64,000 bases of DNA from a virus (lineage: Duplodnaviria; Caudoviricetes): IMG/VR virus record IMGVR_UViG_3300027763_000059, positions 115 to 64,114 of that record; one strand, written 5' to 3'. The notes under the pieces are model-generated. The model saw only the letters and a list, made by a program, of their open reading frames with translations. It ran no database searches and was not told where the DNA came from. How positions within the stretch are numbered: the stretch's first letter is position 1; every line of letters starts with the position of its first letter. A program made the position numbers and the translations under genes. This document shows, piece after piece, positions 25,963-61,024 of the stretch.

Positions 25963-25982
25963 TTTTTAATATCTTTGCACTA

Positions 25983-26405
25983 ATGGATTTAAATACAGGT
26001 TTCAGCATAAGACCATTAGAGGAGAATGACTACGATGATATTCTTTTTGATTGGTGGAAAGATTGGGGGTTTACCCCTCCCGTAAAGGATTTTTTACCTG
26101 AGAATGCAACGGGTGGTATGATTGTTTACGATGGAGATGTACCTGCTTGCGCGGGATTTCTTTATATAACAAACTCTAAGGTTGCCTTAGTTAATTGGAT
26201 AGTATCCAATAAGCAGTATAGAAAGAAACCAAATAGAAGAATAGCAATAGACTTGTTGATACAGTCTTTAACAAATATGGCTAGGTCTTTAGGATACGAG
26301 TACTCTCACGTGTTGATAAAGAACTCAGCACTTGAAAGTACATACGAGAGACTAGGTTATACCAAGTCTATTACTTATACAAATGAATTAATTAAAAAAT
26401 TATAA
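25983..26405 (+). CDS. GNAT-fold acetyltransferase
   Basis: IRPLEENDY start and YERLGY end; own promoter TATCTTTG at 25970-25977. Confidence 0.7.
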   Translation: MDLNTGFSIRPLEENDYDDILFDWWKDWGFTPPVKDFLPENATGGMIVYDGDVPACAGFLYITNSKVALVNWIVSNKQYRKKPNRRIAIDLLIQSLTNMARSLGYEYSHVLIKNSALESTYERLGYTKSITYTNELIKKL

Positions 26406-28942: not shown

Positions 28943-31900
28943 ATGGCTAAACAATGGACACCACCTAGTGATGGATTAGCAACTAAAAGCACTAAATTTG
29001 TACCACCATCCGATGCAGTTGAAGTAAAAAAAAAAGCTTCTTCAGAATTGGATTCCAAGTTGGAAGAACCTACTTTGGTTTCTTCTGCCAACGAAGTTGA
29101 AGACGGAGGGTTAAAAGTAATTCCGGGCGGGGGTACATTGCGTACACCTGAGAAAATGAAATATACAGGCGATTACAAGCCAACTGAGAAAAAAATATCA
29201 GGAGATGGTGAAGTACTTGAAAGTAATGATGGGACAAAATACCGTTATTATAATGGAAAGTACTATACGTTTACAGATACCTCTGTAGATAAAAAGACAG
29301 GGGCTAAAGTAAATAATTATAATACACAGATTGATAACTCTCAAAGAGTTAAGACGTTAGACAAGATGTTTAACAAGGCTGAGTATTATAAAGGTTATCC
29401 GGGTAAAGAAGAAAAAGAATACCGTTTCAAGTACAATCAATGGTATGAGGATGATAAGTCCGGTAAAGGATTTAAACCTATCCAAGATCCTGTACGAGTA
29501 GGAGCTTTAAATAAGCAATTCAAAAAAGAAGGAAGTACTGTCCTAGGTGAAAAAGTATTTGTTGGTTATCCGGGTAAGGAGTCAAACGAATACAAAGTAT
29601 CAGACGATGGTGCATGGATGTATCGACCAAAGGGAAGTAACAATTGGTCTGTAATTACAAATGAAGGTTCTATACTTTCTTTGAACAAACAATACGGCCA
29701 AAAGGTTGACCCTAAAAAACAAGACCTTCAAAACTTAGCAGTTAAAAACTCAGAGTTAAACGATATCAATCACAAGATTGATGCATACGTTACATCTAAT
29801 TTAATTGACGATAGCGAAGAGGTAGTTACCGATGTCTTATCTAAGAAGTTTCCTCAATTTAATTTTGAGCAATCCAAAGCAGGAGTCGATAGGATGACTG
29901 TCTCGTTAAAGGGAAGCCAAGATCCTAAGGATAGAATCGAAATTGTATTAGACAATTGGGAGGATTCTGATGACAAGTTAAATGCAAACTTACTAAAGAG
30001 TTTCATGAAGGAGAGAGTTAATATGGCTGAGAGTCGTACTAGCTTGCAAGAAAAAGAAAGTCCATTCCTAACAAGAGATATCGAGTCAAAGCAAAGAGCT
30101 CTTGAAGCAGGGTCAGGTCAAAAAGAATTTGAGCAACCTGAGCTTGTTATTAATAAAGATGGAAGCGTGTCTTACGCTGAGAAACCAAAGACTACTGCTA
30201 CACAAAAAGCTGTTCAAGGAATTGAGGAGAAACAACAGTTAAAAGAAGCTAGACAAGAATACTTTTCAGATAAATCAAACTACTTAAAGACAATAAAGAA
30301 TAGCTACTCAAGGGGAGAGATTGACAATAAAGAGTTTCAAACTGCAGTAGCTGCTATTAAGGTAGATGACAAAGAGATTAAAAGAAGTGATGAGTTTATT
30401 AATGACGTTAATTATTCAAGAAAAAAATTAACAGAGTCTCAAGACTTCCAAGAAAAGTACATTAACGATGTAACTGAAAAGTTAAAGTCCGGAGAGATTA
30501 CTCAGGAGCAATACGATGCTGAGTATCAGCCAAAGATTGCCGAGATGAATGACTCTGTAGAAAAACAAAAGGAACAGCTCAATATAGATAACAAGAGCAT
30601 GAACGGTTCGTTGAAAGCTATAGAGAGATCCGTAGCTGAGAATAGACTTGTTCAAGAACAGATTGGTAGCACAGGTGGTGCGATTGCATACAACGCTATT
30701 AAAATGGCTACAGACCTTGGTCGATTAGCAGGGTTAACACCTGAGGATCAAGAGGCGTTTATTCGTGATAATTTTGGAATTGTTACTACTGAAGAATTTA
30801 TAGGCTCTGAAGATAGAACATTTTTGCAACAGGCAGCAATGTCGAGTGCATCTACCGGAGTTGCAATAGCAGCAGGACTTGTAGGTGGTGCTCCACTTGC
30901 CCTTGCTTCGTTATGGGCCGCAGGAACATTTGAGATGTTTGATGATGAAGAATTAAAAGATGTCCCAAAGAGAGATAAATTTTTAATGTCTGCAGCATAC
31001 GGTGTTGTATCATCTTACTTAGAGAAAATAGGTTTAGATGAGTTAGTTGGTGGTGAGATAGGTAAGAAGTTAGCAATGAATGTTGTTAAAGATGCGGCTA
31101 AAAAACTTACTAAGGATGCTCCAAAAGAGTACGTTGAGAACTTATTAATTAGCGAAACCAAATCAAGGCTGCAACAGGCAGGAGTAAAGATTGGTGTTGG
31201 TATGCTTGCTGAAGGAACCACTGAGGCACTTCAATCATTAGCTAATGTAAGTACTAAAGAGGTTTACGATCAATTGAAAGGGACTGAGTACTTCAATAAT
31301 AAAACAGGTTGGGAGATAGCTAGTGACGTACTATACGATGGTGCCTTAGGTGCTGTAGGTGGTGGTATGATCTCTAGTGTTGTAACCGGTGCTCAACAAA
31401 CAGTAGAAGGCAGAAGAGCAAATAAGATGGATGCTGAGATTAAAGCATTGATCGCTGCTGCTGAGACCGAGGGTATGAGTGAAGCGGTTAAGACAACTCT
31501 TAAGGCTAAAATTATTCGTGGAGAGATTACCAAAGCGGATGCAATTAATATATTAGGAGATTTTGACATAATCAAGTCAAAGGTAGATCAGATGCCAAAT
31601 ACCCTTACGGAAGAAGGTAAGGCTGCATCACTTGACTTAATGCTAGAAAAAGATAAACTAGAAAAACAAATTGAAGGGAAAGACCCGAATCTTGTTGAGC
31701 CACAAAAGAAAAGGGTAAATGAGATTAATGATAGACTAAAACAAATTGGAAAAGATGCCGTTCAAAAGCAAACAACAAGTGAAGTTCCTATTCAGTCAGA
31801 AGCCGGAGTTGGCCAAGAAGTGGAGGGAAGAGTCTCCGAACCAACAGTTGAGCAAACTGCCCAAGAAGTTGTCGGAGAAAAAATTGTCGGAGAAGAAGCT

Positions 31901-34900
31901 CAAGGTAAGCAAGCTCAAGCAGAGATCACTCAACAAGAAGAAATAATTGTTAATCCTTCACAAGGATATTCATTTACATATGCTTCAAAAGAAGATGTTC
32001 CAAATGAACTAAAAGGAGTTGAAGCAATAAATGAATCAACTACTACGATAGGAAAAAGTAAAAGTTATAAACTTACATTTAGTGGTCAGCAATTAATAGA
32101 TGCAGGCCTTGGTAAACAAGAAGGGGTAGTACCAACTGAAACAGCTCCAAGTACTGAGGCTGAGTTAGACTTCGAGGTTACGCCTGAGGTTACTCAAGAA
32201 GCTGACGCACTTGAGAAGTTATTGGCTGATGAGGGGATTACGGTAGAATTACCGATGGTAGAGGAGACTGTATCTGAAACTGTTACCGCTCCTGAAGAAA
32301 CTATTGTAGACACCTCTGAGGTGTCCGATAGAGACGTAATGGAGATTGAGGATAACACTGAGAATATAAAGACAGAACAAGATAATATTAAAGAGTATCA
32401 AGATGAGGCTAAAGCCAAGGTTGATAAGATTAATAATTCTAAGTGGTCTCCTGTAAGAAAGAAAAATGAGATTGCTAAAGTTCGTCAAGAGTATAAAGAT
32501 AAGATTGAAGACGCAAGGATTACTATAGCAACTAATAAGAGTGATCTTAAGAAAGCTGAGACACGTGTTCGTAAAGCTACTAAGACAGTTCCTGCTCCGG
32601 TAGTTGAAACTCCTATAGCAGAAGCTGCTCCGGTAGCTGAAGCTAAACCTACTGCAAAACCAAAGGCTGTTAAGAAGTTAACTCAAAAGGAAACTATTCA
32701 AAAGTACAACGATCACATCGACTCATTGATTAAGGATGAGAAGGAAAGATCAGATAGGAGAATTGCTCAGATTGCTAACCAAAGAAACTTAGCTACAGGT
32801 CAAAGACGTACTGAGCTGACTCAAGAGATTCAAGACCTAGAGTTTGCATTTAGAGCTAAGAAACGTGGCTTAGATAGCAAGAAAGATGATAAGCAAGCTG
32901 CTATAGACTTTAATGAGCAAGGGAATATTAATCCTATTGATATACTATTCCAACTTGACTCAGATAAAGAGACAACTGATAAAAAGAAAGAGCTACTAGA
33001 TATAGCTACTGCTATGATGGAAGAGGCTGAGAAAGAAGGATTCTCAGAAGAAGCATTTACAGGAGAACAACCTGAGCCACAAGTAGAGCTAATTACAATT
33101 GACATTAAAGAGAACACCGAGCTAGCTAACAAGGTAAAAAGAATGGGTCTTTCTGAACTTATCGGAAAGAAGATAAACCTTGTAATGGCAGACCAACTAA
33201 AAGTTGATAAAGGACTAATGGGAGGACCGTTCTTTCCTTTGATTAATAAGCTGTTTGGAAAGGTTGCATGGGCATCTATTAACGATACCGCTGCTATTAA
33301 GATTATCAACGGAGCAATTAAGTCTGATTATACTGTGGTCTATAATATGAACCCGGAGGCTATTGATTCTAACGTAGCGGTACTTGACTCATTTGAGAGA
33401 AAGATTCAAGAGCTACCTAAGAAAATGCAACAGCAGGTATTCATAGAACTTACTGAGTACTTAAATGAGAAGAAGTTTGGGGAAAAGACAGATGATATAC
33501 GTAAGATGGCATCAGAGTCAAATAACTTAAATGAGTTCTTGACTAAGCTAAACGAGCTAGATGTTGATACCATTGCTGCAGTTGTTAAGAGCGTGCTTCC
33601 ATCAAAGACTGTTAAGGCAGGCACTAAGATTGGTGCTACTCTTCAGTCTCAAAATATTAGCATTGAGGACATCAGAGAAGAGAACATCGAGCAGTTTGTA
33701 GCAGGACTACCTGCAGGTGCACTGACTATGGTGTTGCAGGTAACTGATAAGAACGGTAACAAGGTAACTAAGCAGACAGCAAGAGAGGCACTTATGAGCA
33801 GAGATCAGCAAAAAGCTGAGGGACTGCCAATACATAAGAACTATCCTGTATACATTAGAGGTAAAGCAGTTGGTATCCTAAAGGAGACTACTCCGTTTTG
33901 GAATGTGTTCAAGGACTCGTTAAACGAAATAAACGTAAAAGTTGCAGGTGTTGTTAAGCACTCTACAGGTAGAAAGATTACATCAAAAGAGGCTGTATCT
34001 AACGAGATGAGAAGTGCGTCAATGACTGCTTCACAGGCTAGAAAAGTTTCTGAGCCTACTGTTGATATGTACAAGAAGTTTGTTAGCGTGTTATCTCGTT
34101 CTATTCCGGGAGTAAATGTTGTTACATCTCAAAAAGAGTTCAATGACCTGCTAGAGAACTTGAATACTCAAAAGCTATCTACTAAAAACCAAAAGGTATA
34201 TGGTGCTGTATATAAGGGTAAGATTTATTTGAATCCATCACTACAGAACTACAACACACCTATCCACGAGTTTGGGCATATTTGGCTTAATGTAACTAAG
34301 ACTGCAAACCAAGAGCTATACAATAAAGGTATTGACCTAGTAAAAGACTCAGAGTATGTTGATCAGATTAGAAACAATAAAGACTATCAGCGTGTAGTTA
34401 ATGAGATGCTTAAGAATGGATCAACTCAAGAAGAGGTTGACAACTACATCTATGAGGAAGCACTTGCTACCGCAATCGGTGATAAGGGTGAGTCATTTGT
34501 TAAGGCATCTCAAGCTCTAAAAGACTTTAAGAGTTGGTTAGATAAGCTATACTCATTTGTGAGAAAGATTACAGGTATATCGAAGTATACAGCTGAGCAA
34601 TTGCAAGACATATCACTTGATGAGTTCTTACAGGCTGTATCTGTTGACTTGTTATCAGGAGAGAAGTTATTTGATGTGACTGAGGAGAGTATGTCTGATG
34701 CGCTTCAGCTAATGTCTAAGAGCGAAAACATATCTAAGATAGTAGATATTGCGGCTAAGAATGGCGTATCTAATGAGGCTGTTAAGACATTGCTAGCGAG
34801 AAAAGGATTCTCGATTAGTGATATCAACGCTGCATTTGTTAAGAAAGCAGCTCCTATTAAAAAAGGAAAGGTATCCAAGGTAACAGTTAACGAGAAGACT

Positions 34901-37900
34901 GCGTTGAAGGATCAAATTAGATTTGAAGCTCGTGCAGCTCGTGAGGCCAAGAAAGATTTGAACGATAAGAGAAAAGACTTAGCTAAGACTATCTCTGACA
35001 TGGAGACCACAGGTAAGATTACCACTAAGCAGGCTCAGGCATTAATGGCGCGTATAAGCAAGATTAACATGGACAACCCGGCAAAGGTTGATGCATTTGT
35101 TGAGTACGCAGGTCGAGTATTTGAGAACGCTGAGTTTGCACAGGATGTAGCTAGAGCTAACGCACTTAAGTCAAAAGTTAAGAACAACGCTAAGACTAAG
35201 CTTGGTATCGCTAACGACTTGATCTCTGAGATTTTGAAAATGGCTTCTATTAATCCATCATTGATTCCATCTAAGGTATTCGATACGTACTTGGAGACTA
35301 TGGAGATGCTTGGTCAAAGAACGACTGTTCTGAAGCTTGAGGATAGGGGAGAGCTTACGCAAAAAGTGTCCGACATATTGGACGCGGTTAACGAGGAGTT
35401 ATCCGTAGCCGGTGAAATGTCTGAGCGTTTTGAAGCTTATGACAAGAAAGAAGTTGATAGTGAAGGGAAGATAGACTTTGCTAAGACATTAAGTAAGATG
35501 GTAGCTGACGGTACGATTACCGAAGAAGATGCTGACATCATGCGCAAATACAAGTCTGAGATAATTGACAAGGAGTCAACTAAGATGACTGAGGAAGAAC
35601 TTGAGACAGAGAAAAAATCATTGATTAGCATACTTAAAAAAGATGTTATAACTGATGAGGCTATCAAAGATCTACCATCAAGACTAGAAAGAGATGATGC
35701 TAAATCACTTAAAGAATTAATTAATACTGATGCAGTTAAGTCATTGAATAACACTACGTTAAAGAACTTACTAAAATTAGTTGATAACGTAAACAACGGT
35801 TTCTTTCCTCACTTTGGAAAGGTAATGCAAAGAAGATTAAATTCTATTAATAATGCTCCTACATTAAAATCTTCTGTTAAAAATGCTAATCCACTAAGAG
35901 TTAGTTCTGCTCTAAGTAAGATTAAATCATTGTTTGTAAAGAAAAGAAATTATGTTTTAGATATGGAACGTAGTATTTCTTTAGCAAATATTGATCAGGT
36001 ATTCGGAGATTTTAAAACAGAGAATATTTCAGAGACAATGTTTGATCCATCTCGAAAAGCGCACGCTGCATTTGAATCCACGTTTAGAGTGATTCAAGAT
36101 AAGTTAGAGAAAGCTAGACAAGATGTATTTATTTCTTTGGGTAAAAGTCCGAATAAAGCAATTATGTCTGACTTTAAGACTATGACTTATTTACTTCAAC
36201 TTGAGAAAGAGTCTAACCCTGATAGCAAACAAGTAAACAATGCTGTTGACTTTATTAATGCTACAATAAGTCAAATTAATGATGAGTCATCAAATTACAC
36301 AGAGAAAGATGCTAAGTTCTTACAGGAGATATTAGATGAATATACTAATAAAAAAGCTTTAGTAAAAGAGTATGGTAAACCATATGAAAAATTTACTGCA
36401 GTTGAAAAGTCAAGTATTGAATTAGATAACAAAAAACTTTACAACTCGTTTAATGCATCTGAGAAAGCTTCTATTAAAGCTATTCAGGAAGCAAATGAAT
36501 CTATGACTGAGAAGGCTGTATACACATCAGGAATTATTAGAGGTGATAAGATTGACCCAATTGCTAACTATGTACCACACGTTGTACTTGCAGAGGTTAG
36601 ACCGGGAGAAAAAATATCAGGAGCAAGTGATGTAGATAGCTTTAATAAATCAAGAAAGCCATCTACTAAGGCTAATAACTTAGTAAAACGTACAGGTACT
36701 GTAACAGCTATTAGCTTTGATCCATATCAATCTACTCTTAATGCAACTAAGAACGTATTGCTAGATTTCTATATGACCGATCCAATTATTACAGCGAGAA
36801 TGACTATTAATGAGACTCGTAAAAAATTAGAAGAGGAAGGTATTACGAAGGAACAAAATTTATTTTTAAATGCAATTAGAGACGCATTTGAAGAGGCTAC
36901 AAAAAATGTATTAGTAAATAGTTTCCAACAAGATGAGATCTTAAGCAAGGTGGCTAGAGTTATTACAAAGGCAGGATATAGATCTTTGTTAGGTACAAGC
37001 ACAGTTCGTACTGCATCAGAGTTACTATCTAACATGAGTGCTGTTGCATTGATGGAAGGAAAAGCATTTCTTAAAGGGGCATCTAAAGAATTCAGGAAAT
37101 ACTCAAATCCTGAAGAAGGAATTGATATCATGATAAATAGTGGAGCCACTCAAATTAAGCGTGTTATGGGTGGTAATACTCAAGGTAGTATGTTTATTGA
37201 TCCTGCTATTATGAATAGCGTTGTTGGTATGAAAGATGGAAAAGCAAAATCCAAATTAGAGAACACGATGCAAATGATTTATAATAGATCACTTAAGAAT
37301 CCTGTTAATTGGATTGAGGCTACATCAGATGTTATGATGTCTGCTCCCGATATACTTGTAACAAGACCCACTTGGTTTGGAGCATTTGCTAATGAGTTTG
37401 AGAAGGTGTCAGGAAATAAGGTTGACTTTGATAAGATTAAGGCCAATGATGAGGCTTACATGAACGATAACAAGGATGCTATTGAAGCTGCAAGAAAGAG
37501 AGCAGATAAGGCTGTATTCAAGTTGAGTGCTACGAATAACCCTTACATGGGTGTATTAAAGAATAATATATCACCTGATATTAGTGGAATTGCTAAGACT
37601 ATTAAAATATTCGATAACTACTTGAATACATTTACTATGTATGAGTATACTAATGCTCGTACTGCAATCTATGCATTGGCAGGTCAAGGTATGATTAGTA
37701 AGAAAGAGGCTATATTATTATTAGCAGGTGTTACTACGCGTATGATCACATACTCATTACTATTAAAGGTATTAGGTAGTTCTTTATTAGGATTATTTAT
37801 GGGGGATGATGATGAAGATGATGATAAGACCTTCATGCAAAAGCTTGGGCAAGCTGCGGCATCTGCCGGGACGACAATGATGCTTGGTAGAAACTTCGGT

Positions 37901-38626
37901 AACATTGCAAGAAATGTTATGGGATATGGTGCTGAGCAATTCAATAAGAATTATCTTACAGCACTAAGAGAAGGTGACTACGATGCGTATGAGGATGCTA
38001 TTCAGTATACAGTATTGCCTCAAGAGAAGAAACAAGATATGGGTCAAGGTGTTGAACTATTTGATATATATCAAAATATGTTAGGGCCTGCAGGACCATT
38101 TGTTAAGTCACTTGATTATTCACTCAAGAAGTTAACTGAGAAGGATAGAGTTGCTCCGAAAGAAAGCGATAGCGATGCTGTTAAAGCTAAGAGAAGAGAG
38201 GCTGTACTTAGACAGCAGAGAGAGAGAAATATTCGTGTTCCTTTAGAACTTACAGGAACCTTGGGATATGTACCATTCTATAAAGATATTAGAAAGGTAG
38301 TCAATGAAATGATCTATACTGATCTTAAGAAGTCTCTAAAAGAACAAGAGGCTAATAAGGAAAAGAAGGCTGAGATGTTGATGGGCTACGAGAGCAAAGC
38401 TGACATGGAGCTACAGAATCCTAAGCTATACGAGAAACTTTACGATAAAGGTGGTAAATACTATGCTCAAGAAGAGGTTAGGTTAGCTAATGAGAATCTA
38501 AAGAATAACATCAAAAAGATTCAGGATAGAGAAAAGTACGGGGATATTAGTCCAATGTATGCTAGAAACCTAAAGAAAGCTGAGGAAAGAAAAGCAAGGA
38601 CAAGGATAAAAAGAGCAAACAGATAA
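28943..38626 (+). CDS. Giant polyvalent ejection protein (3227 aa) with zincin metallopeptidase domain
   Basis: PIHEFGHIW...EEALA zincin motif, hydrophobic Gly/Ala segments, coiled coils; last gene of the virion arm. Confidence 0.75.
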   Translation: MAKQWTPPSDGLATKSTKFVPPSDAVEVKKKASSELDSKLEEPTLVSSANEVEDGGLKVIPGGGTLRTPEKMKYTGDYKPTEKKISGDGEVLESNDGTKYRYYNGKYYTFTDTSVDKKTGAKVNNYNTQIDNSQRVKTLDKMFNKAEYYKGYPGKEEKEYRFKYNQWYEDDKSGKGFKPIQDPVRVGALNKQFKKEGSTVLGEKVFVGYPGKESNEYKVSDDGAWMYRPKGSNNWSVITNEGSILSLNKQYGQKVDPKKQDLQNLAVKNSELNDINHKIDAYVTSNLIDDSEEVVTDVLSKKFPQFNFEQSKAGVDRMTVSLKGSQDPKDRIEIVLDNWEDSDDKLNANLLKSFMKERVNMAESRTSLQEKESPFLTRDIESKQRALEAGSGQKEFEQPELVINKDGSVSYAEKPKTTATQKAVQGIEEKQQLKEARQEYFSDKSNYLKTIKNSYSRGEIDNKEFQTAVAAIKVDDKEIKRSDEFINDVNYSRKKLTESQDFQEKYINDVTEKLKSGEITQEQYDAEYQPKIAEMNDSVEKQKEQLNIDNKSMNGSLKAIERSVAENRLVQEQIGSTGGAIAYNAIKMATDLGRLAGLTPEDQEAFIRDNFGIVTTEEFIGSEDRTFLQQAAMSSASTGVAIAAGLVGGAPLALASLWAAGTFEMFDDEELKDVPKRDKFLMSAAYGVVSSYLEKIGLDELVGGEIGKKLAMNVVKDAAKKLTKDAPKEYVENLLISETKSRLQQAGVKIGVGMLAEGTTEALQSLANVSTKEVYDQLKGTEYFNNKTGWEIASDVLYDGALGAVGGGMISSVVTGAQQTVEGRRANKMDAEIKALIAAAETEGMSEAVKTTLKAKIIRGEITKADAINILGDFDIIKSKVDQMPNTLTEEGKAASLDLMLEKDKLEKQIEGKDPNLVEPQKKRVNEINDRLKQIGKDAVQKQTTSEVPIQSEAGVGQEVEGRVSEPTVEQTAQEVVGEKIVGEEAQGKQAQAEITQQEEIIVNPSQGYSFTYASKEDVPNELKGVEAINESTTTIGKSKSYKLTFSGQQLIDAGLGKQEGVVPTETAPSTEAELDFEVTPEVTQEADALEKLLADEGITVELPMVEETVSETVTAPEETIVDTSEVSDRDVMEIEDNTENIKTEQDNIKEYQDEAKAKVDKINNSKWSPVRKKNEIAKVRQEYKDKIEDARITIATNKSDLKKAETRVRKATKTVPAPVVETPIAEAAPVAEAKPTAKPKAVKKLTQKETIQKYNDHIDSLIKDEKERSDRRIAQIANQRNLATGQRRTELTQEIQDLEFAFRAKKRGLDSKKDDKQAAIDFNEQGNINPIDILFQLDSDKETTDKKKELLDIATAMMEEAEKEGFSEEAFTGEQPEPQVELITIDIKENTELANKVKRMGLSELIGKKINLVMADQLKVDKGLMGGPFFPLINKLFGKVAWASINDTAAIKIINGAIKSDYTVVYNMNPEAIDSNVAVLDSFERKIQELPKKMQQQVFIELTEYLNEKKFGEKTDDIRKMASESNNLNEFLTKLNELDVDTIAAVVKSVLPSKTVKAGTKIGATLQSQNISIEDIREENIEQFVAGLPAGALTMVLQVTDKNGNKVTKQTAREALMSRDQQKAEGLPIHKNYPVYIRGKAVGILKETTPFWNVFKDSLNEINVKVAGVVKHSTGRKITSKEAVSNEMRSASMTASQARKVSEPTVDMYKKFVSVLSRSIPGVNVVTSQKEFNDLLENLNTQKLSTKNQKVYGAVYKGKIYLNPSLQNYNTPIHEFGHIWLNVTKTANQELYNKGIDLVKDSEYVDQIRNNKDYQRVVNEMLKNGSTQEEVDNYIYEEALATAIGDKGESFVKASQALKDFKSWLDKLYSFVRKITGISKYTAEQLQDISLDEFLQAVSVDLLSGEKLFDVTEESMSDALQLMSKSENISKIVDIAAKNGVSNEAVKTLLARKGFSISDINAAFVKKAAPIKKGKVSKVTVNEKTALKDQIRFEARAAREAKKDLNDKRKDLAKTISDMETTGKITTKQAQALMARISKINMDNPAKVDAFVEYAGRVFENAEFAQDVARANALKSKVKNNAKTKLGIANDLISEILKMASINPSLIPSKVFDTYLETMEMLGQRTTVLKLEDRGELTQKVSDILDAVNEELSVAGEMSERFEAYDKKEVDSEGKIDFAKTLSKMVADGTITEEDADIMRKYKSEIIDKESTKMTEEELETEKKSLISILKKDVITDEAIKDLPSRLERDDAKSLKELINTDAVKSLNNTTLKNLLKLVDNVNNGFFPHFGKVMQRRLNSINNAPTLKSSVKNANPLRVSSALSKIKSLFVKKRNYVLDMERSISLANIDQVFGDFKTENISETMFDPSRKAHAAFESTFRVIQDKLEKARQDVFISLGKSPNKAIMSDFKTMTYLLQLEKESNPDSKQVNNAVDFINATISQINDESSNYTEKDAKFLQEILDEYTNKKALVKEYGKPYEKFTAVEKSSIELDNKKLYNSFNASEKASIKAIQEANESMTEKAVYTSGIIRGDKIDPIANYVPHVVLAEVRPGEKISGASDVDSFNKSRKPSTKANNLVKRTGTVTAISFDPYQSTLNATKNVLLDFYMTDPIITARMTINETRKKLEEEGITKEQNLFLNAIRDAFEEATKNVLVNSFQQDEILSKVARVITKAGYRSLLGTSTVRTASELLSNMSAVALMEGKAFLKGASKEFRKYSNPEEGIDIMINSGATQIKRVMGGNTQGSMFIDPAIMNSVVGMKDGKAKSKLENTMQMIYNRSLKNPVNWIEATSDVMMSAPDILVTRPTWFGAFANEFEKVSGNKVDFDKIKANDEAYMNDNKDAIEAARKRADKAVFKLSATNNPYMGVLKNNISPDISGIAKTIKIFDNYLNTFTMYEYTNARTAIYALAGQGMISKKEAILLLAGVTTRMITYSLLLKVLGSSLLGLFMGDDDEDDDKTFMQKLGQAAASAGTTMMLGRNFGNIARNVMGYGAEQFNKNYLTALREGDYDAYEDAIQYTVLPQEKKQDMGQGVELFDIYQNMLGPAGPFVKSLDYSLKKLTEKDRVAPKESDSDAVKAKRREAVLRQQRERNIRVPLELTGTLGYVPFYKDIRKVVNEMIYTDLKKSLKEQEANKEKKAEMLMGYESKADMELQNPKLYEKLYDKGGKYYAQEEVRLANENLKNNIKKIQDREKYGDISPMYARNLKKAEERKARTRIKRANR

Positions 38627-49191: not shown

Positions 49192-49209
49192 TTTATTTGA
49201 TTTTATTGG

Positions 49210-49541: not shown

Positions 49542-50762
49542 TTATGTGCAATTTTTGAAACTTTTTTCGCACTCAAGTAGATCATTGTACTTTACGTACA
49601 CGAATCCCTCGTGGATTATTTTCTTGCAGTTATTCCATTTGTATTCGTGTTGATACTCTACTTCCATTGCCTTAGCTTTTTGAAACTCATTGAATAGTAG
49701 ACGCATCCTATCAACACCTAAACATTGTGTCATAACATCCTCTAAGTACTCTACTGCGGTCTGTTTCATATCTCATTTACTTTAAATTTACCCATGTCGT
49801 AGCCTCCCTTGTTTAAAAGTTCAGACTTCATCCAATAGGCTAATGACCTATTGTTGAACGTCCACTCTTGGACTACTTTCTTTCCGATTTGATATATTAG
49901 CTTGTACCTCATGTCTCTTGATTTTATCCGTATACTACTTCGCCTAACGCCATGTACTGAAAGCACATATCCGATGATGTTGCGTCACCTTGCTCGGCTA
50001 TCTCATCGAACAACGCCCATCCATCGCCCTCGTCTACCATCTTCTGTAGCCCATGCATGATGGTGTCCTCGTTGATAACGCCAATTGGCTCATCGTTCTC
50101 CATGTCCTCTATGTCATGTACCTCAATGCTAATGCGCTTGTCAAGTATAGCCTTGGCAAATGCCATGGAGAAAGATGGCTCTTCCTCTCTGCTAACTGCC
50201 TCACGTACCTTTCTTCCGTTCTCGTTGTTGATGTAGTACCAATAGTTGCTACCACCCTCTAGTGCAGTCACGAATATGTTCTCTAATACGTCTCTGCTTA
50301 CTTCTCTTTGAATGTTAAATTTCATTTGATTTAAATTTTTCGTTATACAATACAAGGCTTATCTCCAACCAATCCGATATGATATCGTCAGGTGCGTTTA
50401 CCTCTCTTAGTCCCTCTGTGATGTAGCCTACGCACTCTAAGGCGCACTCTGTTGCCATCTCTAAGGTCATCATCTCTCCTCGCTTAGTCTGTAACTTAAG
50501 GAAAGAAAAACGCAGGTCGAATACCTTGCGCTCAATCTTTTTTTGTCGCTCAGTCTTTTCCATTGTAGATGTGATTTAGGTACTGTTCTTTTCTTCCCGT
50601 AAACTTGCCATGCCAATCGGCTATGGTCTTAACAGATGTTGATGCCACCGATGGAGTGTGTGTCCTTGGTATAGGCTTTGCTTCACATGACTTGAGTGTC
50701 ATGTAGGTCAGTAGTATACCCACGCAGAGATACCCAACCCGTTGGATTGTTTTTGCTTTCAT
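49542..50762 (-). CDS. Block of five small early hypothetical ORFs (49542-49769, 49766-49912, 49924-50325, 50315-50563, 50550-50762)
   Basis: Co-oriented, tightly packed or overlapping, A-rich start regions. Confidence 0.6.
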
Positions 50763-50787
50763 TACATTTGATTTAAGTTTAAAATAT

Positions 50788-51191: not shown

Positions 51192-54100
51192 CTACATTTC
51201 TCGCACGGGTACAAAGACCTTGATACCACGATCGTTGACCTCGTTATCTAACGGGAACGCCTCAAATGAGCCAATCAATATCTCCATGAATACCTCACGT
51301 CTCTTGCTTGGCAGGTACAACATTCGGTCAATCACCTCTTGGATGACCTCTTTTCTTTTCTGTTCTGTTAATGGTAGTGTGTACATATCTCTTAGTTTAA
51401 AATTTTAGTTCGTCAAATTCTGTGTACATATCCACGTACTGCTCGGGATATCTCTTCTTTAATGCGTCCAACAACGTGTCGTTGTCGTAGTAGCCCTCGC
51501 CATCACGCTCTGCGTTAACGAGGGGGTTAATTACTTCTACGATGTCTTGGTCATCTAACGTAGTCACTAGGTAGAAGTCCTCTTCTGACCATGCCGTTGT
51601 GTTAACTCTAATTACTCTCATGTCTCTTAGTCTTTAAATTCTTTAATACCTGATGCCTCTAGTAACTCTACGTCATCCTTGTCAATATACTTTGCTAGGC
51701 TCTGTAACTCTATTAACTCGCCTATGCTTATTCTCTCTGCTCTAAGTTCTTGTCTTAGGTACTCTAGTCTCTCTGTCATTTGATTTTGTTTTTTAGGTAG
51801 TTATTAATCTTTGTAATCATCTTCTCGTACGATGTCTCCACGTCCATGTGACTGAACGTACCGAACATCGCCTCATCAAATAGGTAGGCAACTGATGTAG
51901 TTGCCCCACCCTCTTGCATGGTCTCAATTATCTTGAATCCCTTATACATTGCTTCCATGTCGTTTAGTTTATTAGTTGTCTCTATCTCTAAAGTATTCTG
52001 CAATATTGATTAAGTCATCGAGCAATTGCTCGTCAGTTTTCAAGGCTAACTTTAATACATCGTCAGCCGTTTCGAATTCGTCTCGTGCCATGTCGTAGAT
52101 GGCGTTAATTAGTTTCTCTCTCATGATTTCTAAGTTTTAAAGTTCTGCTGTGAATTCGCAGTATCCGTTCTCGTTTATGCAGTCAAGTATTTGCTTACCT
52201 AACTTGTAGTCTGCGTAGTCACGTAGGTTACTTATGTGAAGTAAGTTCTCAGTCAATGTCTCATCGCTGTACGATGTGTTCTTGCTGAAGAAGTCATCCA
52301 TTTTATGTAGGTGTTCTCCTAACGTCTCCTCTATTCTCTTTAGTTCAGCCTCAATATCTTCTTTGCTATCTTCATCAAAACAATATTCTATGAAGTTAGG
52401 TACATGCCCCGTTACTCCAAATCTATCTGCCGAATCGCTTGGTTGAACGGCAAACCAAAATTTGCCTTCAATGTCTCCGTTATAATATCTTCCCATGTTT
52501 TCTATTTTTTTAAAGTTTATAATTAATTGTACGCATCGCAAATGTGGTGATGCTTCTTGTGATGGTCAGCCTTCAATGGCTTGTACTTTGTCTTGTACGC
52601 ATCGCATGGATGGTACTTCGTGCTACCACATGACGTTAATAAAATTGTTAGTCCGATTGTTATAAGAATTGCTTTCATTTTGTTTTGGTTTTTAGTTAGT
52701 TATTAATTATTGTACTCGTTTCCTTCTGCATCGTACCACTCGTCATCAATGTCATACATATCCCACTCCGTGTAGTAGTAATAGTTTTCGTTGTAGAAAT
52801 ATTCTAACAATTGGTCTACCTCTAGATCTTTTGATTTTACACCATTGCTATCTTCCCAATTTAGTTCTCTTAAATGGTATAATAAATCCTCTTCATTACC
52901 AAAGCAAAGCTCTCCGTCTCCTACAACGTATCCTTCGTTAATGCCTTTTCCCGTAGCATCACAACGTCTTGCAAATTTTTCCATCTTAGTTTAGTTTTAA
53001 TCGTTCGTTAATCGCCTTCTTAATTCCATGTGGGATATGGTCTAGCATAGTCCCAAGGTGGTCACCTTCCTCAATCTCCGTTCGGTCACCGATGTACATA
53101 TTGAATCCAACCCCTTGGTCGCTCATTCCGTACACGTCATCACCGATAAAGATTGTGTATCGGTCTAGGGTCTCCCCTCCGTTGTCGTAGATTACTACGT
53201 TCGCTTCCTTTCTCACTATCATCTCTTTTAGTTTAGTTTAATATCTCCGATAGGTACAATGGGACAACGTGTAATGCGCCCGTATCAGCGCATCGCACAA
53301 TATAATGTCCCGTAGAACTTACTTGACCGATTAACTCGTAGTAACCGCTTAATGTTGAATGCATCCCGTCAATCAACATCGTATCTCTTTCTCTTAATTC
53401 AATTAGCATATCTCTTTTTTTAATGTGTTGAACCTACAGGTATTCCAATCTCATATCCCTTCTCTAACGCATCGTTCAATTCGTTATGCGTATCAATTAG
53501 ACTCTCTGAATCATCGTCCCATATGATGTATAAATCAAATAGGTTTAGGTCAAAAATTTGTCTTGCTCTTTTTTCGTTTACTAGCTTGTAAACAAATCCG
53601 TCGTTCATTACTTTCATGTCGTTTAGTTTAGTCGTTTAACTCTTTAATGAATACCTTTCCGTATCGCGCGAATCGTCCCGTAGGCTTTTCAATGCGTACA
53701 ATGAAATCGTCCGTCTCAAAGTCATTGCCTTGCGCCAATCGTCCATGCACCGCGTTACGCGTTATCTTGAATAGGTCAACCAACCAATCCGATGTGAACG
53801 TATACTTTAATTCCCACACGTCATCTACGTTTAACTCCATGTATGGTTTGATTTGAGCAAAGAAATACTTGTCGGGTGTAGTGTCATAGAACTCCTTTAG
53901 AAAGTACTTCCACAATTGTGGCTTTGTCTCTATTCGGTTACACCATTGCGCATCTTGTGTTGACCATGCGCCATCAATTACCATTGCGTTTCCGTCTTGT
54001 ATCCAAGACTCGAATCCTTCTAATTCAAATGTTTTCATGTTGTTTAGTTTTAAATAAAAATTACTTTGTTAGTTGATAATTCGGGAATACAATACGCATC

Positions 54101-55806: not shown

Positions 55807-56108
55807 GTCGTTGTGTTTTAAAAGTTAGTCAATGCGGTGAGTATCGCTCTCATCAAATGCTCATTGCATCCGCATTGTTATTAGATTGCACCACGCTTAT
55901 ATAGGTAGAATCGAACTACCACAATCTATAGGGGATGTCATGCTCCCCTTAATACCTTTCGGTATGCTTGCTCTATCTTTTCGGTAACTAACCACCTGCT
56001 TTAGCTCGCAGTCTCTTGATACTAATACCCTCAAGTAAGGGAGTGACCTGTTGTAGATGTGTTACTGAACTTCGCATCATCTTACGGATTGCCGATTCCG
56101 TTTTAGCT
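55807..56108 (-). ncRNA. ~300-nt structured early leader or ncRNA
   Basis: No ORF, promoter at 56113-56120, at least 7 hairpins including a GAAA tetraloop and two T-loop-like arms. Confidence 0.6.
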
Positions 56109-56112
56109 GAAG

Positions 56113-56164
56113 CAAAGATATGTATTCTTTGTGTAACTAATGCACATTAAATGAATTATTTTTG
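56113..56164. promoter_or_regulatory. Divergent promoter pair at the switch between the two arms
   Basis: Minus-strand TATCTTTG at 56113-56120 and plus-strand TATTTTTG at 56157-56164. Confidence 0.6.
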
Positions 56165-56619
56165 TGCAATACTCTGTATCCCTTATACAGCAAGGGATTC
56201 ACGAGTAGTGATGAACGAAAGTTTTTTAAGATGCTAGGGAATAAAGGGATTGATTGCCTATAATTAATTAGTTAGGATAGAAATTCGAGGGGATGTTAAG
56301 CCTTCTCTCGCTGTATGCGTATTGTATTCGTGTCTTCGAAGACACAGCACCGCGCGAAACGTAGCAACAGCCTATGTGCTACAGCCTAGTGGGATGCCAA
56401 TACGTAGCATGGACAAGGGATGCGGACGTAAGGGATGACCATGTGCGCGTCTAGTCCCTAGGGAAAAGCCAAAAAATCTGCAGGAAATTTCCCTTTTTGC
56501 ACCCCCCCACCTCGTTTAAAAAGCAGTTTCCGATCGGGGGCCGAGCGCGTCAAACGTGGTACAACCCCACTACTACGGATATCTAATATTATTTTTTACC
56601 TTTGTAAAAACTTAAGATT

Positions 56620-56838
56620 ATGATGAACAAGAAAGGAAACTTAGACGGACTAGAGGTACGTAACGGAAGGTTGATTAACAACGCGCCTGATGGTATGACC
56701 GGAATCCAAAAGATTGCGATTGCAAGAAAGGCAATGCGTATTGAAGAGAAGACCATGATCATGGAAAATGCAATGTATCGAGCAGAGATGAGAGCTGATA
56801 TGATGGAGAACATGATGGGTAGTAAGGGCATAGACTAG
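56620..56838 (+). CDS. Met-rich small protein, monocistronic
   Basis: Promoter TACCTTTG at 56597-56604 and a terminator just downstream. Confidence 0.75.
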   Translation: MMNKKGNLDGLEVRNGRLINNAPDGMTGIQKIAIARKAMRIEEKTMIMENAMYRAEMRADMMENMMGSKGID

Positions 56839-56860
56839 TCTTTTATCGCAACTTTTTAGG

Positions 56861-56891
56861 AAGGGAGGTTTTTATTAATCTCCCTTTTTTT
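56861..56891 (+). terminator. Intrinsic terminator
   Basis: AAGGGAGG...TCTCCCTT plus T-tract. Confidence 0.75.
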
Positions 56892-56897
56892 ATGTTC

Positions 56898-57073
56898 TAT
56901 GTCGATAATCGACATAATTATTGATTTTTATGTCGAGAGAATGTCGACTAAAGTACTGATAATCAACTCACTGTCGATAATGTCGATTTTATCTTCTAAT
57001 TCTAGTGGGAAAAAAATTATATATATAATAATATATATATATATATATAGAGAAACTATTTTTGTCAATTGAC
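56898..57073. repeat. Iteron-like TGTCGA array plus (TA)n tract, putative origin copy 2
   Basis: TGTCGA at 56900, 56931, 56942, 56972, 56981 and inverted at 56909, then a TA-rich tract. Confidence 0.6.
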
Positions 57074-57122
57074 AGGATTAAAATTTTTATTGTTTATTTG
57101 AATAATAGTAATATCTTTGTGA

Positions 57123-57188
57123 TGCATTATTGCTTTTGCGTTTGGTTTAAGAAAGGGGTATCAGTTGAAAGCGGTGCCCCTTTTTTTT
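57123..57188 (+). ncRNA. Putative ~65-nt small RNA
   Basis: Promoter TATCTTTG at 57112-57119, U/G-rich single-stranded part, GGGGTATC/GGTGCCCC hairpin plus T8; the next gene has a separate promoter at 57192-57199. Confidence 0.6.
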
Positions 57189-57229
57189 ATGTATATTTGT
57201 ACTTTATAAACCCATTTAATTTTTTAGAC

Positions 57230-57520
57230 ATGGAAAAGTTTTTAAGTATCCCGGTAACAAGTGAGCAGAACCAATTATTATCTGCAACAGGTATCGTATT
57301 AATTGAGCAAGAGTCAACAACTACTGTTCACGTTCATTACAAAGCGAGTACAGCAACTGACGTTGTAGTAATTACTCATGCTGCAGTTCCTGCGGGAAGT
57401 GAGGCTATGCGTGATGCGATCCAAGGTGCAGTTATTGCTGCATTGGCTACGCCATGGACGGCAGTAGCTTACCAAGTTGGTGTATTACCATACGCGGTAT
57501 CAGGTATTACTATCTCTTAA
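57230..57520 (+). CDS. Hypothetical (possibly virion) protein, 96 aa
   Basis: Start MEKFLSIPV after promoter TATATTTG; terminator downstream. Confidence 0.7.
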   Translation: MEKFLSIPVTSEQNQLLSATGIVLIEQESTTTVHVHYKASTATDVVVITHAAVPAGSEAMRDAIQGAVIAALATPWTAVAYQVGVLPYAVSGITIS

Positions 57521-57537
57521 TTAATAGTATACTACTT

Positions 57538-57569
57538 AAAGGGCATCTCTAACGGGGTGCCTTTTTTTT
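57538..57569 (+). terminator. Intrinsic terminator
   Basis: AAAGGGCATC...GGTGCCTTT plus T-tract. Confidence 0.75.
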
Positions 57570-57698
57570 GTTTCCTATAAATGTGGATAAGTGGCAACAT
57601 AAGGGATAAAAACACATTATAATGTGCTTTTTATGGCACATTATACTTAATAGTCACAATTTATTGTTATTTTTGTGACATAATTAATCAAATCAAAT

Positions 57699-59309
57699 AT
57701 GCAAGGACAAGGTTATATGCCGAAGGATTTATACTTCGAGGAGGAGGGCAGACGAAAGTTAATCTCCGGTGTTAAGAAGATGGCAGCAGCTGTCAAGAGT
57801 ACGTTGGGTCCCCACGGGAACACGGTACTTATAGAGTCACCACACCACACACATGGTATCACAGTAACAAAGGACGGAGTGACGGTCGCTAAGTCGATCG
57901 AGCTAATGGATCCGGTTGAGAACCTAGCGGTCAAGATGATGAAAGAGGCATCTGACAGGACGGCTACTACAGCGGGTGACGGAACGACTACGGCAATCGT
58001 GTTGACTGAGGCCATGGTATTGGGTGGTATGGAGCTCATCAAGCCTGAGCACAACAGAACTCAGGTGCTAAGGCACATGACAGAGATAAGTGACTTGGTA
58101 GTTGAGCGTCTTAAGAAGAAGAGCAAGAAGGTCACTACGGGGATGTTAGCGGACGTTGCGACCATCTCGGCAAACAATGACAGGACCATAGGTAAGATAA
58201 TCGCTGACGTGTACAAGGACGTTGGTAAGACGGGTATCGTAACGGTTGAGAAGTCACAGTCGACTACAACATACGCTGAGACCACAGACGGACTACGCGT
58301 ACAGAGGGGGTACTTATCGCCTATGTTTATAAATAATCAGGAGAAGGACGAGTGTGTCTTTGACGACACGCTTGTGTTGGTCTCTGACATGGAGATAGGG
58401 AACATACTACAGATCGAGGCTGTGTTGAAGCCACTCGTTAAGGACGGGAAGAAGCTGTTGATCATCGCGCCTTGTTCTACAAACATGACAAACACCTTGG
58501 CTGCTAACGTAGTTAAGAACGGTTTAAAGATATGCGCTATCCAACCACCGAACTTCGGGTACAAGCAGCACGAGCTGATGCAAGACATCGCGGTAAGTGT
58601 TGGTGCTACCTACTTCAGTGAGAAGACGGGTGACGACTTGAGCCACATGACGTACGCGGACTTGGGTCACGCGGGTAAGGTGATCGTTGGACGAGACGAG
58701 ACCATCATCATGACGAGTGATGTGAAGGCTGACCAAGCAGAGATAGACGAGAGAGTCGCTCAGTTGTGGAAGGCTAACGAGGCAGCTACGAAAAAGAACG
58801 ACAAGGACTTCATCTTGGAGCGAATTGCATCCCTAACGGGTGGAGTTGGTGTCATCTTTGCAGGTGGGAACACTGACCTAGAGCAAAAGGAGCTGTACGA
58901 CAGGATTGATGACGCGGTTTGCGCGGTACGTTCAGCCTTGGAGGAAGGAATTTTGCCGGGTGGTGGTAAAGCCTTGGGTGAGATGAACATATTCGAGGGC
59001 TTAGGCTTCGCAACTGACACACAGGAGAAGGTAATCGCTGCTAAGATCATGCAGTTGGCTGTAAATATGCCACTGATGCAGATCCTTAAGAACGCGGGTG
59101 TACCATTTGAGGACGTAGCGGACTGTATGGTAAACGATGGCTTTGGATACAACGTAAAGACAGGTGAGAAGGGTGACCTAATCAAGATGGGCGTAATCGA
59201 TCCGTTAAAGGTAACACGCTCAGCACTGCAGAACGCGGTGAGTGTAGCGGTTACGATACTAAGTACTAACGCTATCGTAACGATGGCACGCACAATCGGT
59301 GTAGAATGA
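57699..59309 (+). CDS. groEL: Chaperonin GroEL (phage-type)
   Basis: TLGP.G, VTKDGVTVAK, AGDGTTTA, ISANND, EEGILPGGG, GVIDPLKVTRSALQNA; lacks the GGM tail. Confidence 0.97.
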   Translation: MQGQGYMPKDLYFEEEGRRKLISGVKKMAAAVKSTLGPHGNTVLIESPHHTHGITVTKDGVTVAKSIELMDPVENLAVKMMKEASDRTATTAGDGTTTAIVLTEAMVLGGMELIKPEHNRTQVLRHMTEISDLVVERLKKKSKKVTTGMLADVATISANNDRTIGKIIADVYKDVGKTGIVTVEKSQSTTTYAETTDGLRVQRGYLSPMFINNQEKDECVFDDTLVLVSDMEIGNILQIEAVLKPLVKDGKKLLIIAPCSTNMTNTLAANVVKNGLKICAIQPPNFGYKQHELMQDIAVSVGATYFSEKTGDDLSHMTYADLGHAGKVIVGRDETIIMTSDVKADQAEIDERVAQLWKANEAATKKNDKDFILERIASLTGGVGVIFAGGNTDLEQKELYDRIDDAVCAVRSALEEGILPGGGKALGEMNIFEGLGFATDTQEKVIAAKIMQLAVNMPLMQILKNAGVPFEDVADCMVNDGFGYNVKTGEKGDLIKMGVIDPLKVTRSALQNAVSVAVTILSTNAIVTMARTIGVE

Positions 59310-59568: not shown

Positions 59569-60012
59569 CTACTCTGTCTCATTTTTTAGTTTGTTAGCCT
59601 TGATCTCCTCGTTCATTGAGATGATCATATTTCGGTACACCTTATCGCTGTAGCTAACGTTCCTTTTAAACATCGGGTTAAAGTTCTCGTGTGTGGCAAT
59701 CTCCTCACCGTTAAGCTTCTTGTAAACGACCTCGATCATCTTCTTGGTTCTGTGAGGTAGGTGGTATAGGTTCTTACGCGGGCCGCTTCCTTTTCTAAAC
59801 ACCTCGATCCAACCATCACGTAGTAAGTTACCAAATCGGTTCTTGTCCCATGGGAACACTTGATTGAACTCAAGGAATCTGTCCTTGCTAAAGTAGCTCT
59901 CGGACTTAAGGAACAGGAGCATCTCTAGGTCTGCTTGTGTTATCCCATACTTGGCCTTGATATAGTACTTTACTATACGCCAATATTTTAAGTAGTCATT
60001 CTTTTTTTCCAT
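59569..60012 (-). CDS. Winged-helix (MarR-like) protein
   Basis: GITQADLEMLLFL...LLRDGWIEV pattern; the only minus-strand gene inside the plus arm. Confidence 0.55.
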   Translation of the reverse strand: MEKKNDYLKYWRIVKYYIKAKYGITQADLEMLLFLKSESYFSKDRFLEFNQVFPWDKNRFGNLLRDGWIEVFRKGSGPRKNLYHLPHRTKKMIEVVYKKLNGEEIATHENFNPMFKRNVSYSDKVYRNMIISMNEEIKANKLKNETE

Positions 60013-60060: not shown

Positions 60061-60198
60061 ATGGCAACTAAAGCAACACCAAATTTACCGGCAGCTTCAA
60101 GATTGAAGGGACCTGCTGCAACAAATCAATCATCTGTTAAGCCTAAAGGCGCAATGGGTAAGCCTGCTAAGAAAATGATGGGCAAAAAAGCTTGTTAA
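60061..60198 (+). CDS. Small basic protein, 45 aa
   Basis: MATKATPNLPAASRL...KKMMGKKAC after promoter TACTTTTG at 60027-60034. Confidence 0.65.
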   Translation: MATKATPNLPAASRLKGPAATNQSSVKPKGAMGKPAKKMMGKKAC

Positions 60199-60795: not shown

Positions 60796-60811
60796 TACCT
60801 ATCTTTGTCTC

Positions 60812-61024
60812 ATGGAACTAAGAACAGTTGTTACAGGCGTAAGACGCGATAGCATTGGACTAGGCGACACGATAGAGAAGTTCACGAGGGCAACAGGAAT
60901 TAAGAAGTTTGTTGACACGGTATCTGATCTAACAGGAGTTGACTGCGGTTGTTCCGCGAGAAAGGAGGCTTTAAATGAGCCAAATATATTAGTAAATAAA
61001 TTATTTTATAATAAAGACAAGTAA
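60812..61024 (+). CDS. Conserved small phage protein
   Basis: GLGDTIEKFT.ATGIKK.V...DCGC..RKE.LN; promoter at 60800-60807. Confidence 0.75.
   Translation: MELRTVVTGVRRDSIGLGDTIEKFTRATGIKKFVDTVSDLTGVDCGCSARKEALNEPNILVNKLFYNKDK

Follow-up and report, generated by a model that had tools for sequence, protein, structure and literature searches.

The phage is represented by a single-contig virus record of 64,114 bp, nearly all of which is covered by the window, the stretch of 64,000 nucleotides analysed here. Its terminase, portal and virion genes lie on the + strand, and a leftward block on the - strand (38.6-55.8 kb) carries a helicase, a primase-helicase, a Sak-type annealing protein and about 30 small ORFs. 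The rightward block holds, in order, a 72-aa ORF (56620-56838), the putative small-RNA unit that concerns us here, a 96-aa ORF (57230-57520) and the chaperonin genes of the phage, those for GroEL (57699-59309) and GroES. Boxes of the form TAnnTTTG, which we take to be the Bacteroidota sigma-A -7 consensus and apply as a motif match only, stand before the gene starts of this block. Two -7 boxes (25970-25985 and 60800-60814) end 5-6 nt 5' of the ATGs at 25983 and 60812, which makes leaderless mRNAs possible for these two genes. A stretch of about 760 nt (55830-56590) that separates the divergent gene blocks is ORF-free and GC-richer; its right ~330 nt (about 56280-56590) are well conserved in three relatives (L266, L103 and L081) and partly in a fourth (L267), and an Rfam search of the stretch gave no match. 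The stretch might encode a large non-coding RNA or serve in packaging or replication.

Searches of Pfam and PHROGs assigned no family to the 72-aa and 96-aa proteins or to the four proteins that appear below as predicted targets, no tRNA or tmRNA was found in the window, and a DNA search of the unit region against 50,697 phage records returned no match. GroEL-carrying Bacteroidetes phages related to Cellulophaga phi38:1 are known (PMC5332604); the nearest GroEL among named records, at 62% identity, comes from an uncultured phage. The initial annotation had described the phage as having no sigma factor or RNA polymerase of its own. This is not established, because the 3,227-aa product of ORF 28943-38626 has no assignable function: it matched solely a PHROG of unknown function, a PDB sequence search gave no match, and a crude pattern search found D.D[GA]D, [NG]AD[FY]DGD and D[FYLIVM]D.D all absent. 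The protein may be a virion RNA polymerase or an injection protein, a choice that bears on how the early genes would be transcribed.

The unit (57089-57188) consists of a promoter, a free part and a terminator, with a new promoter close behind, just as the initial annotation had laid out. Promoter P1 (57089-57119, + strand) comprises a -33-like ATTG (57089-57092), a 19-nt spacer and the -7 box TATCTTTG (57112-57119). It is followed on the same strand by a U/G-rich, unstructured 5' part of about 30 nt, GCAUUAUUGCUUUUGCGUUUGGUUUAAGAAA (57124-57154), which contains the conserved core UUGCUUUUGCGUUUGGUUU (about 57130-57148), then by the hairpin GGGGTATC/AGTTGAAAGC/GGTGCCCC (57155-57180), with an 8-bp stem and a 10-nt loop, and by a T8 tail of the intrinsic-terminator type (57181-57188). 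A/U pairs extend the stem, which counted in this way has 8-11 bp, and, with a loop of 10, the hairpin escaped a simple terminator scan that allowed loops of up to 8. The second promoter box, P2 (TATATTTG, 57192-57199, + strand), lies outside the RNA and serves the downstream 96-aa gene, 31 nt before its ATG. The predicted RNA folds with -21.1 kcal/mol (z -2.73; 3 of 200 shuffles were as good), and its 5' 25 nt are essentially open in this fold.

P1 has the elements of a promoter in its own right, with a -33 element (TTTG/ATTG), a spacer of 19-20 nt and TAnnTTTG, by motif match. Its position is unusual. Eleven of the 13 intergenic same-sense TAnnTTTG boxes sit 5-31 nt before an ATG, and P1 is one of the two exceptions, with 111 nt to the ATG and a terminator in between. 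Nor is the hairpin simply the terminator of the gene upstream, since the 72-aa gene has its own (56858-56889), and about 230 nt of iterons and (TA)n, then P1, lie between the two. On the - strand, no conserved ORF or promoter was found at 57100-57200, which argues against a cis-antisense RNA of the sar/OOP type. Rfam 15 gave 0 matches in the window at gathering thresholds; at permissive thresholds the best match over the unit was DapZ, which scored 20 bits (E = 2) where the family threshold is 56.

Upstream of the unit, ATGTCGA-type iterons (56899-56987), among them the palindromes TGTCGAtaaTCGACA (56900-56914) and CTGATAATCA, are followed by an AT-rich (TA)n tract (57017-57049) and by a perfect palindrome, TGTCAATTGACA (57063-57074), about 50 nt 5' of the predicted RNA start. 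The iterons are 89-94% identical in four relatives (L081, L085, L102 and L103), and they may form the upstream control region, or an origin-like region, of the conserved module to which the unit belongs. The palindrome TGTCAATTGACA, whose half-site resembles the iteron, is a candidate operator of P1. Distant relatives show the same layout at the same place with other iterons (GTGTTGAC / ATGTTAAC) and (GA)n; that the iterons differ suggests a lineage-specific DNA-binding protein, for which the always-adjacent 72-aa ORF, without family as it is, is a candidate.

Another way to view the promoter is as part of a replication origin, in which P1 would fire beside the iterons and AT-rich tract to help open the origin, with the terminator only limiting the transcript. 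Directly upstream, all the relatives shown do have lineage-dependent iterons, a (TA)n or (GA)n tract and a conserved palindrome, and the gene blocks diverge and the cumulative GC skew turns at the site. The skew turn, however, equally follows gene orientation, P1 lies 3' of the (TA)n tract and faces away from it, and the origin is itself putative. As this explanation also has nothing to say about the conserved core and its complementarity, described below, we consider it distinctly improbable.

The frame 57122-57520 is open, with an ATG at 57122 in frame with the 96-aa ORF, so that the segment might be translated, either as an N-terminal extension of that ORF or as a micro-ORF. The relatives refute this. 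All 80 kept homologues of the 96-aa ORF align from residue 1, which is M57230, with unrelated sequences upstream, and the ORF is not behind the unit in the six fetched relatives. Additionally, ATG 57122 is missing in L081, L102, L103 and L179, from which we conclude that the unit segment is not translated. A micro-ORF on the - strand was rejected as well, being not conserved in the relatives' sequences. Translation together with the downstream ORF, the outcome that the initial annotation had named as fatal to its own proposal, is thus not what the comparison with relatives shows, and we give a translated segment hardly any credence. The 96-aa ORF (57230-57520, + strand), to which no function is assigned, constitutes a cassette distinct from the unit, with a promoter and a terminator of its own. 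It has 330 relatives in IMG/VR, always with their own TAnnTTTG box and a conserved leader, and occupies many different contexts, like a mobile cassette.

Lying ahead of the 96-aa gene and GroEL, the unit might instead act in cis, as a leader or attenuator controlling read-through into the downstream genes, and the tails in L081 and L082 are indeed imperfect U-runs. However, the downstream genes carry their own -7 boxes (57192 and 57668), the gene that lies downstream varies between relatives, and no alternative antiterminator fold was found in six versions of the unit, which leaves a cis-acting role very unlikely. Before GroEL, at 57566-57698, there are a conserved inverted repeat, AAAAACACATTATAATGTGCTTTTT, and repeated GCACATTATA motifs, which are also present in L085, L102, L103 and L179 and are possibly the operator of the chaperonin genes.

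Relatives were found by an exact search for the hairpin, through the 72-aa protein in IMG/VR and metagenomes, and by a GroEL search. Units of promoter, U-rich part and terminator, for which the initial annotation had suggested searching, occur in six further distinct versions: L081, L085, L102 (=L105), L103 (=L104), L179 and L082. We built a covariance model from six of the unit's versions, which scored the unit above 66 bits in the window as in the six further versions (66-91 bits), always at this position, and nothing else above 27 bits in 300 sources (~1.55 Mb); the model search left out 47 of the 347 loci, namely near-duplicates, loci added later and the L244-L267 set. The core pattern is present in 11 of 267 loci, each time at this site. 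Each of the six full-length versions retains the -33 and -7 boxes of P1, spaced by 19-20 nt, the core (C/U)UUUU(C)GC(G/A)UUUGGUUU, the hairpin and, on the + strand, a U-rich tail; this tail is found in all seven versions, and a tail on the - strand is not kept.

Identity to the window, given in the order L081, L085, L102 and L103, is 17/19, 18/18, 18/18 and 16/18 over the core and 26/26, 17/26, 26/26 and 23/26 over the hairpin, and ranges over the four from 3 to 10 of 11 at the RNA 5' end, from 3/8 to 5/7 in the linker and from 13 to 16 of 19 in the promoter spacer. With both of its flanks variable, the core forms an island of conservation. A DNA contig (X4) that spans 56600-57568 with the window's full arrangement has 37 differences, none of the 34 that are listed falling in 56970-57260, so that there are at most 3 in that interval. 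The hairpin is paired in 98.5% of 66 cells, and in four of its pairs both partners have changed (in L103, for example, a G-C has become U-A); 0-2 of 500 shuffles equalled this result, and slid controls were 42-61% paired. This covariation, the energies of -19.5 to -22.6 kcal/mol in six versions and the U-rich tail in 7/7 are those of an intrinsic terminator. The unit is thus stand-alone, untranslated and conserved in relatives from promoter to terminator, as had been proposed. Its full-length versions all come from one narrow clade, in which the 72-aa protein is 78-84% identical, and its conservation is for that reason partly shared ancestry. An exact 22-mer of the free part had 0 matches in IMG/VR, and an 18-mer of the hairpin core added one match there, by chance, inside coding sequence (L083). 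A looser pattern, TTTGGTTT-gap-GGKTATCA, gave more than 119 matches in IMG/VR, and the 80 loci kept from these are chance matches, as they lack a match to the model at E <= 0.1.

In wider relatives without the unit, the layout of iterons, (TA)n and promoter drives the 96-aa gene or GroEL directly. In 17 of 80 loci, (TA)n stands at -89 to -117 from the ATG of the gene (-201 in the window), with a single promoter and the gene within ~100 nt, where the window has ~105 nt extra, and of the 14 displayed core-less loci of the 72-aa family (L086-L101), 12 have GroEL under direct control of a promoter at the same position. The unit is thus a derived feature of a narrow clade. These observations are also what gives force to the main rival of a small-RNA gene, namely that an orphan promoter and a cassette-boundary terminator yield a transcript that is a by-product or insulator, without function in trans. 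P1 would then originally have been the promoter of either GroEL or the 96-aa gene, the terminator would have been left by cassette exchange, and the antisense look of the free part would be the relic of an inverted or decayed gene start. In keeping with this, similarity ends exactly behind the hairpin, where four different modules follow: the 96-aa cassette in the window, a repeat-bearing spacer in L081 and L179, another segment in L103, and the GroEL upstream region directly in L085 and L102. The T-run abuts a cassette that in L008 follows a different terminator. L082 keeps the hairpin exactly between unalignable flanks, and a 13-nt repeat in its unrelated 5' part recurs elsewhere in that phage, at the 3' end and terminator of a gene, which suggests that the hairpin began as a cassette terminator. 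This rival, however, does not account for a conserved core between variable flanks, for a U-tail kept in 7/7 versions on the + strand and not on the other, or for the fact that complementarity is confined to start regions and to one orientation, and we regard the by-product as a serious possibility that nevertheless falls well short of probable. In two of the relatives, the unit is followed by tandem AACTAAGTAAGT repeats and a CCC(C)-TCC-GGG(G) hairpin (L081, 1120-1200; L179, 130-190), of which L103 shares the hairpin.

The window, L081, L102 and L082 share exactly the same 26-nt hairpin. Such identity exceeds the needs of a plain terminator and would be consistent with a real small RNA in another role, either pairing with host mRNA or acting on a protein, by binding or titration, through its invariant loop AGUUGAAAGC. 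Such a role appears improbable, since L085 combines the same free part with another loop, the complement of the loop is not enriched in the phage (3 matches, one of them itself, where 6.2 were expected), and the hairpin pattern had 0 matches in one genome each for 185,579 species.

Much of the case for a trans-acting RNA turns on the pairing of the free part with translation start regions, which had first been described for an 11-mer. The 11-nt pairings exist, with G-U only, at 50767-50777 (TTTGATTTAAG) and 50325-50335 (TTTGATTTAAA). The 11-mer is nevertheless at chance level (41 matches with <=2 mismatches against 34.3 +/- 5.8 expected; 14 of 100 shuffles reach 41) and by itself means nothing, and the partial matches that had been listed near 49196, 49506, 51779, 52685, 55577 and groEL, at -11 to -15 kcal/mol, are within the range of shuffles. 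We used RNAduplex to score the whole free part (57125-57154) against positions -30 to +15 of each gene in a set of 84, defined by a simple ORF rule from which 56899-57072, 57122-57520 and 60061-60198 were dropped as spurious or mis-started and to which 57230-57520 and 59569-60012 (- strand) were added. Across the 84 start regions the minimum was -22.9, the mean -10.8 and the mean of the best five -20.4 kcal/mol, compared with -16.6 +/- 1.8, -8.9 +/- 0.5 and -14.6 +/- 1.1 for 500 dinucleotide shuffles, of which 1, 0 and 0, respectively, were as good. The comparison with composition-matched shuffles that the initial annotation had called for thus favours the whole free part and not the 11-mer, and the proposal that the free part is antisense to start regions beyond its composition holds.

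The effect depends on both place and orientation. In the interiors of the same 84 genes the free part did no better than shuffles (114, 35 and 136 of 200), and the effect disappeared when the RNA was reversed (-16.2 and -14.8 kcal/mol for minimum and best-5 mean) or the targets were (-18.8 and -16.6). Among 1,867 sampled 30-mers of the + strand the free part ranks first for its best-5 mean, with 5 others matching its minimum. The four strongest sites among the start regions are all in small genes of the leftward block (- strand). The first predicted target, 50752-50778, spans -16 to +10 of a 70-aa gene (50550-50762) with 22 bp at -22.9 kcal/mol, and the second, 51946-51972, spans -14 to +12 of a 60-aa gene (51776-51958) with 22 bp at -21.8 kcal/mol; the third (53604-53631; 65-aa gene 53420-53617) has 23 bp at -21.1 kcal/mol and the fourth (53213-53242; 78-aa gene 52986-53222) 24 bp at -19.5 kcal/mol. 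These four predicted duplexes, of 22-24 bp including 3-5 G-U pairs, run across the AUG from about -16 to +13. The initial annotation had also drawn attention to a CAU, or anti-AUG, at the start of the free part; it is present (57125-57127), though it is not the partner of the AUG in the best duplexes and is missing in L103. Sites at or below -19 are found in 4 of the 30 small leftward genes, in 0 of 14 leftward replication genes and in 0 of 39 rightward genes, and leftward and rightward pairing energies differ (Mann-Whitney p = 0.003).

These numbers have to be read with some care. The strong starts share a motif complementary to the free part, UAAACUAAACGAC-AUG-RAAGYAA, so the four targets are not independent, and the site had been picked by the initial annotation partly for its pairing. 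A scan of all mRNA-sense sequence gave 30 distinct sites at or below -19.0, of which 26 lie away from start codons and 4 (ranks 1, 3, 9 and 19) at them, where a rough estimate would expect ~1; it is therefore not the energy that is distinctive, only the placement. Of the interior windows, 2 of 152 reached -19. The free part thus offers a conserved single-stranded seed with complementarity above chance, a finding weakened by the many interior sites.

Only one relative, L266, has both the unit and the leftward block, and it has the same core as the window. Its own free part again pairs with start regions better than shuffles (1 of 300 matching the minimum, 0 of 300 the best-5 mean). Pairing is kept in the orthologues of target 2 (-21.8 in the window, -22.1 in L266) and target 4 (-19.5 and -18.2); it is lost at the top target 1 (-22.9 to -10.8), and one of the four targets has no orthologue. 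With the window's start regions as a stand-in, the best-5 mean was reached by 0 of 100 shuffles for the L102 variant, 1 for L103, 3 for L081, 5 for L082 and 18 for L179 (not significant), the variants being homologous and these tests consequently not independent. The 5' part of L082 did no better than shuffles against its own 46 start regions (116, 28 and 52 of 300).

The RNA data consisted of assembled contigs of two metatranscriptome runs holding small shares of this sequence. In one (X19), a 400-nt contig of a relative lies over 56748-57147 (30 other letters, 4 gaps) and ends before the hairpin; it also spans the iteron region, which looks untranscribed, and may be DNA. The contig of the other (X20) covers 56611-56822 only. 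Since contigs show neither transcription nor RNA ends, we count these two neither for nor against the unit.

A conserved orphan promoter, a conserved open core, a covarying terminator that is retained on one strand only and an oriented complementarity to start regions are, taken together, best explained by a small-RNA gene. Our best reading of its function is that of a trans-acting antisense repressor of early-gene translation, which we advance tentatively, our doubts still somewhat outweighing our confidence. Bacteroidota initiate translation on A-rich, unstructured leaders, without Shine-Dalgarno pairing. We infer that host RNA polymerase would start at P1, at about 57123-57126, and stop at the hairpin and U tail, at about 57188, giving an RNA of ~65 nt. 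Its single-stranded 5' 30 nt would be the antisense of the start pattern of the leftward small genes, UAAAC[U/C]AAACG..AUG.AAGCAA, and would base-pair in trans with a few mRNAs (starts 50762, 51958, 53222 and 53617), from about -15 to +12. A duplex covering the AUG would block 30S binding in this Shine-Dalgarno-less system, and the target genes would be turned down once the rightward block is active. A bolder version, in which a virulent-type Bacteroidota phage silences a set of early mRNAs at translation initiation with one antisense RNA to the start consensus, as an RNA-based temporal switch that would suit a host phylum initiating without Shine-Dalgarno pairing, and in which the hairpin is a scaffold for different 5' seeds across related phages (as L082 might suggest), we hold to be rather doubtful.

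If the antisense reading is true, the phage would time its own genes post-transcriptionally, in a phylum without Shine-Dalgarno-led start recognition, and the unit would be a natural antisense tool for the Bacteroidota translation system. It makes a testable case, with four defined start regions, an invariant 8 nt (UUUGGUUU) and natural G/A variants of the core (GCG or GCA, at window position 57142), in the almost unstudied field of trans-acting small RNAs of virulent phages.

Several phage RNAs resemble the unit in part. P22 sar and lambda OOP are short RNAs (~70 nt) that possess both a promoter and a terminator of their own and act antisense on phage mRNA, OOP lying beside the origin region. 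Both are cis-encoded opposite their target, whereas the unit has nothing opposite and its predicted pairing is imperfect and in trans (targets at 50.7-53.6 kb). The c4 RNA of P1/P7 is a small antisense RNA that acts in trans, pairing around the ribosome-binding site and blocking translation of a phage gene (PMC12197685), and trans antisense action on the translation initiation of phage genes is likewise what we propose for the unit. It belongs to temperate phages, in which it controls an antirepressor within the immunity operon, while the unit has its own promoter and terminator, its candidate targets, unlike that of c4, are several small genes 3.5-6.5 kb away, and it has no Rfam match. LPR1/PreS of lambda is a base-pairing phage sRNA that activates host genes (dnaN) in an Hfq-using host (bioRxiv 10.1101/2024.10.31.621285). 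It shares with the unit base pairing and a link to translation initiation, but the candidate targets of the unit are phage genes and its proposed effect is repression, in a phylum where initiation is not led by Shine-Dalgarno pairing.

Within the host phylum, GibS is a chromosomal sRNA of Bacteroides that serves as a cellular metabolic regulator (PMC7366714). By description, sRNAs of this type and the unit have in common a sigma-A-type promoter, a short unstructured seed, an intrinsic terminator and the Bacteroidota setting. The literature that we covered on phage small RNAs, which took in phage sRNAs and Bacteroides chromosomal sRNAs, yielded nothing for Bacteroidota phages. For virulent phages in general, only the T4 band C and D RNAs were known, according to PMC4933390, before sRNA1 and sRNA2 of the virulent Pseudomonas phage PAK_P3. 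These two are intergenic and were seen by RNA-seq, and a role in trans was proposed for them from 11-nt matches only, one candidate phage target being an early ORFan (PMC4933390). The PAK_P3 small RNAs are the nearest counterparts in virulent phages: they are observed RNAs with no known function, and the unit is a predicted RNA whose complementarity, 22-24 bp at start codons, has been tested with controls.
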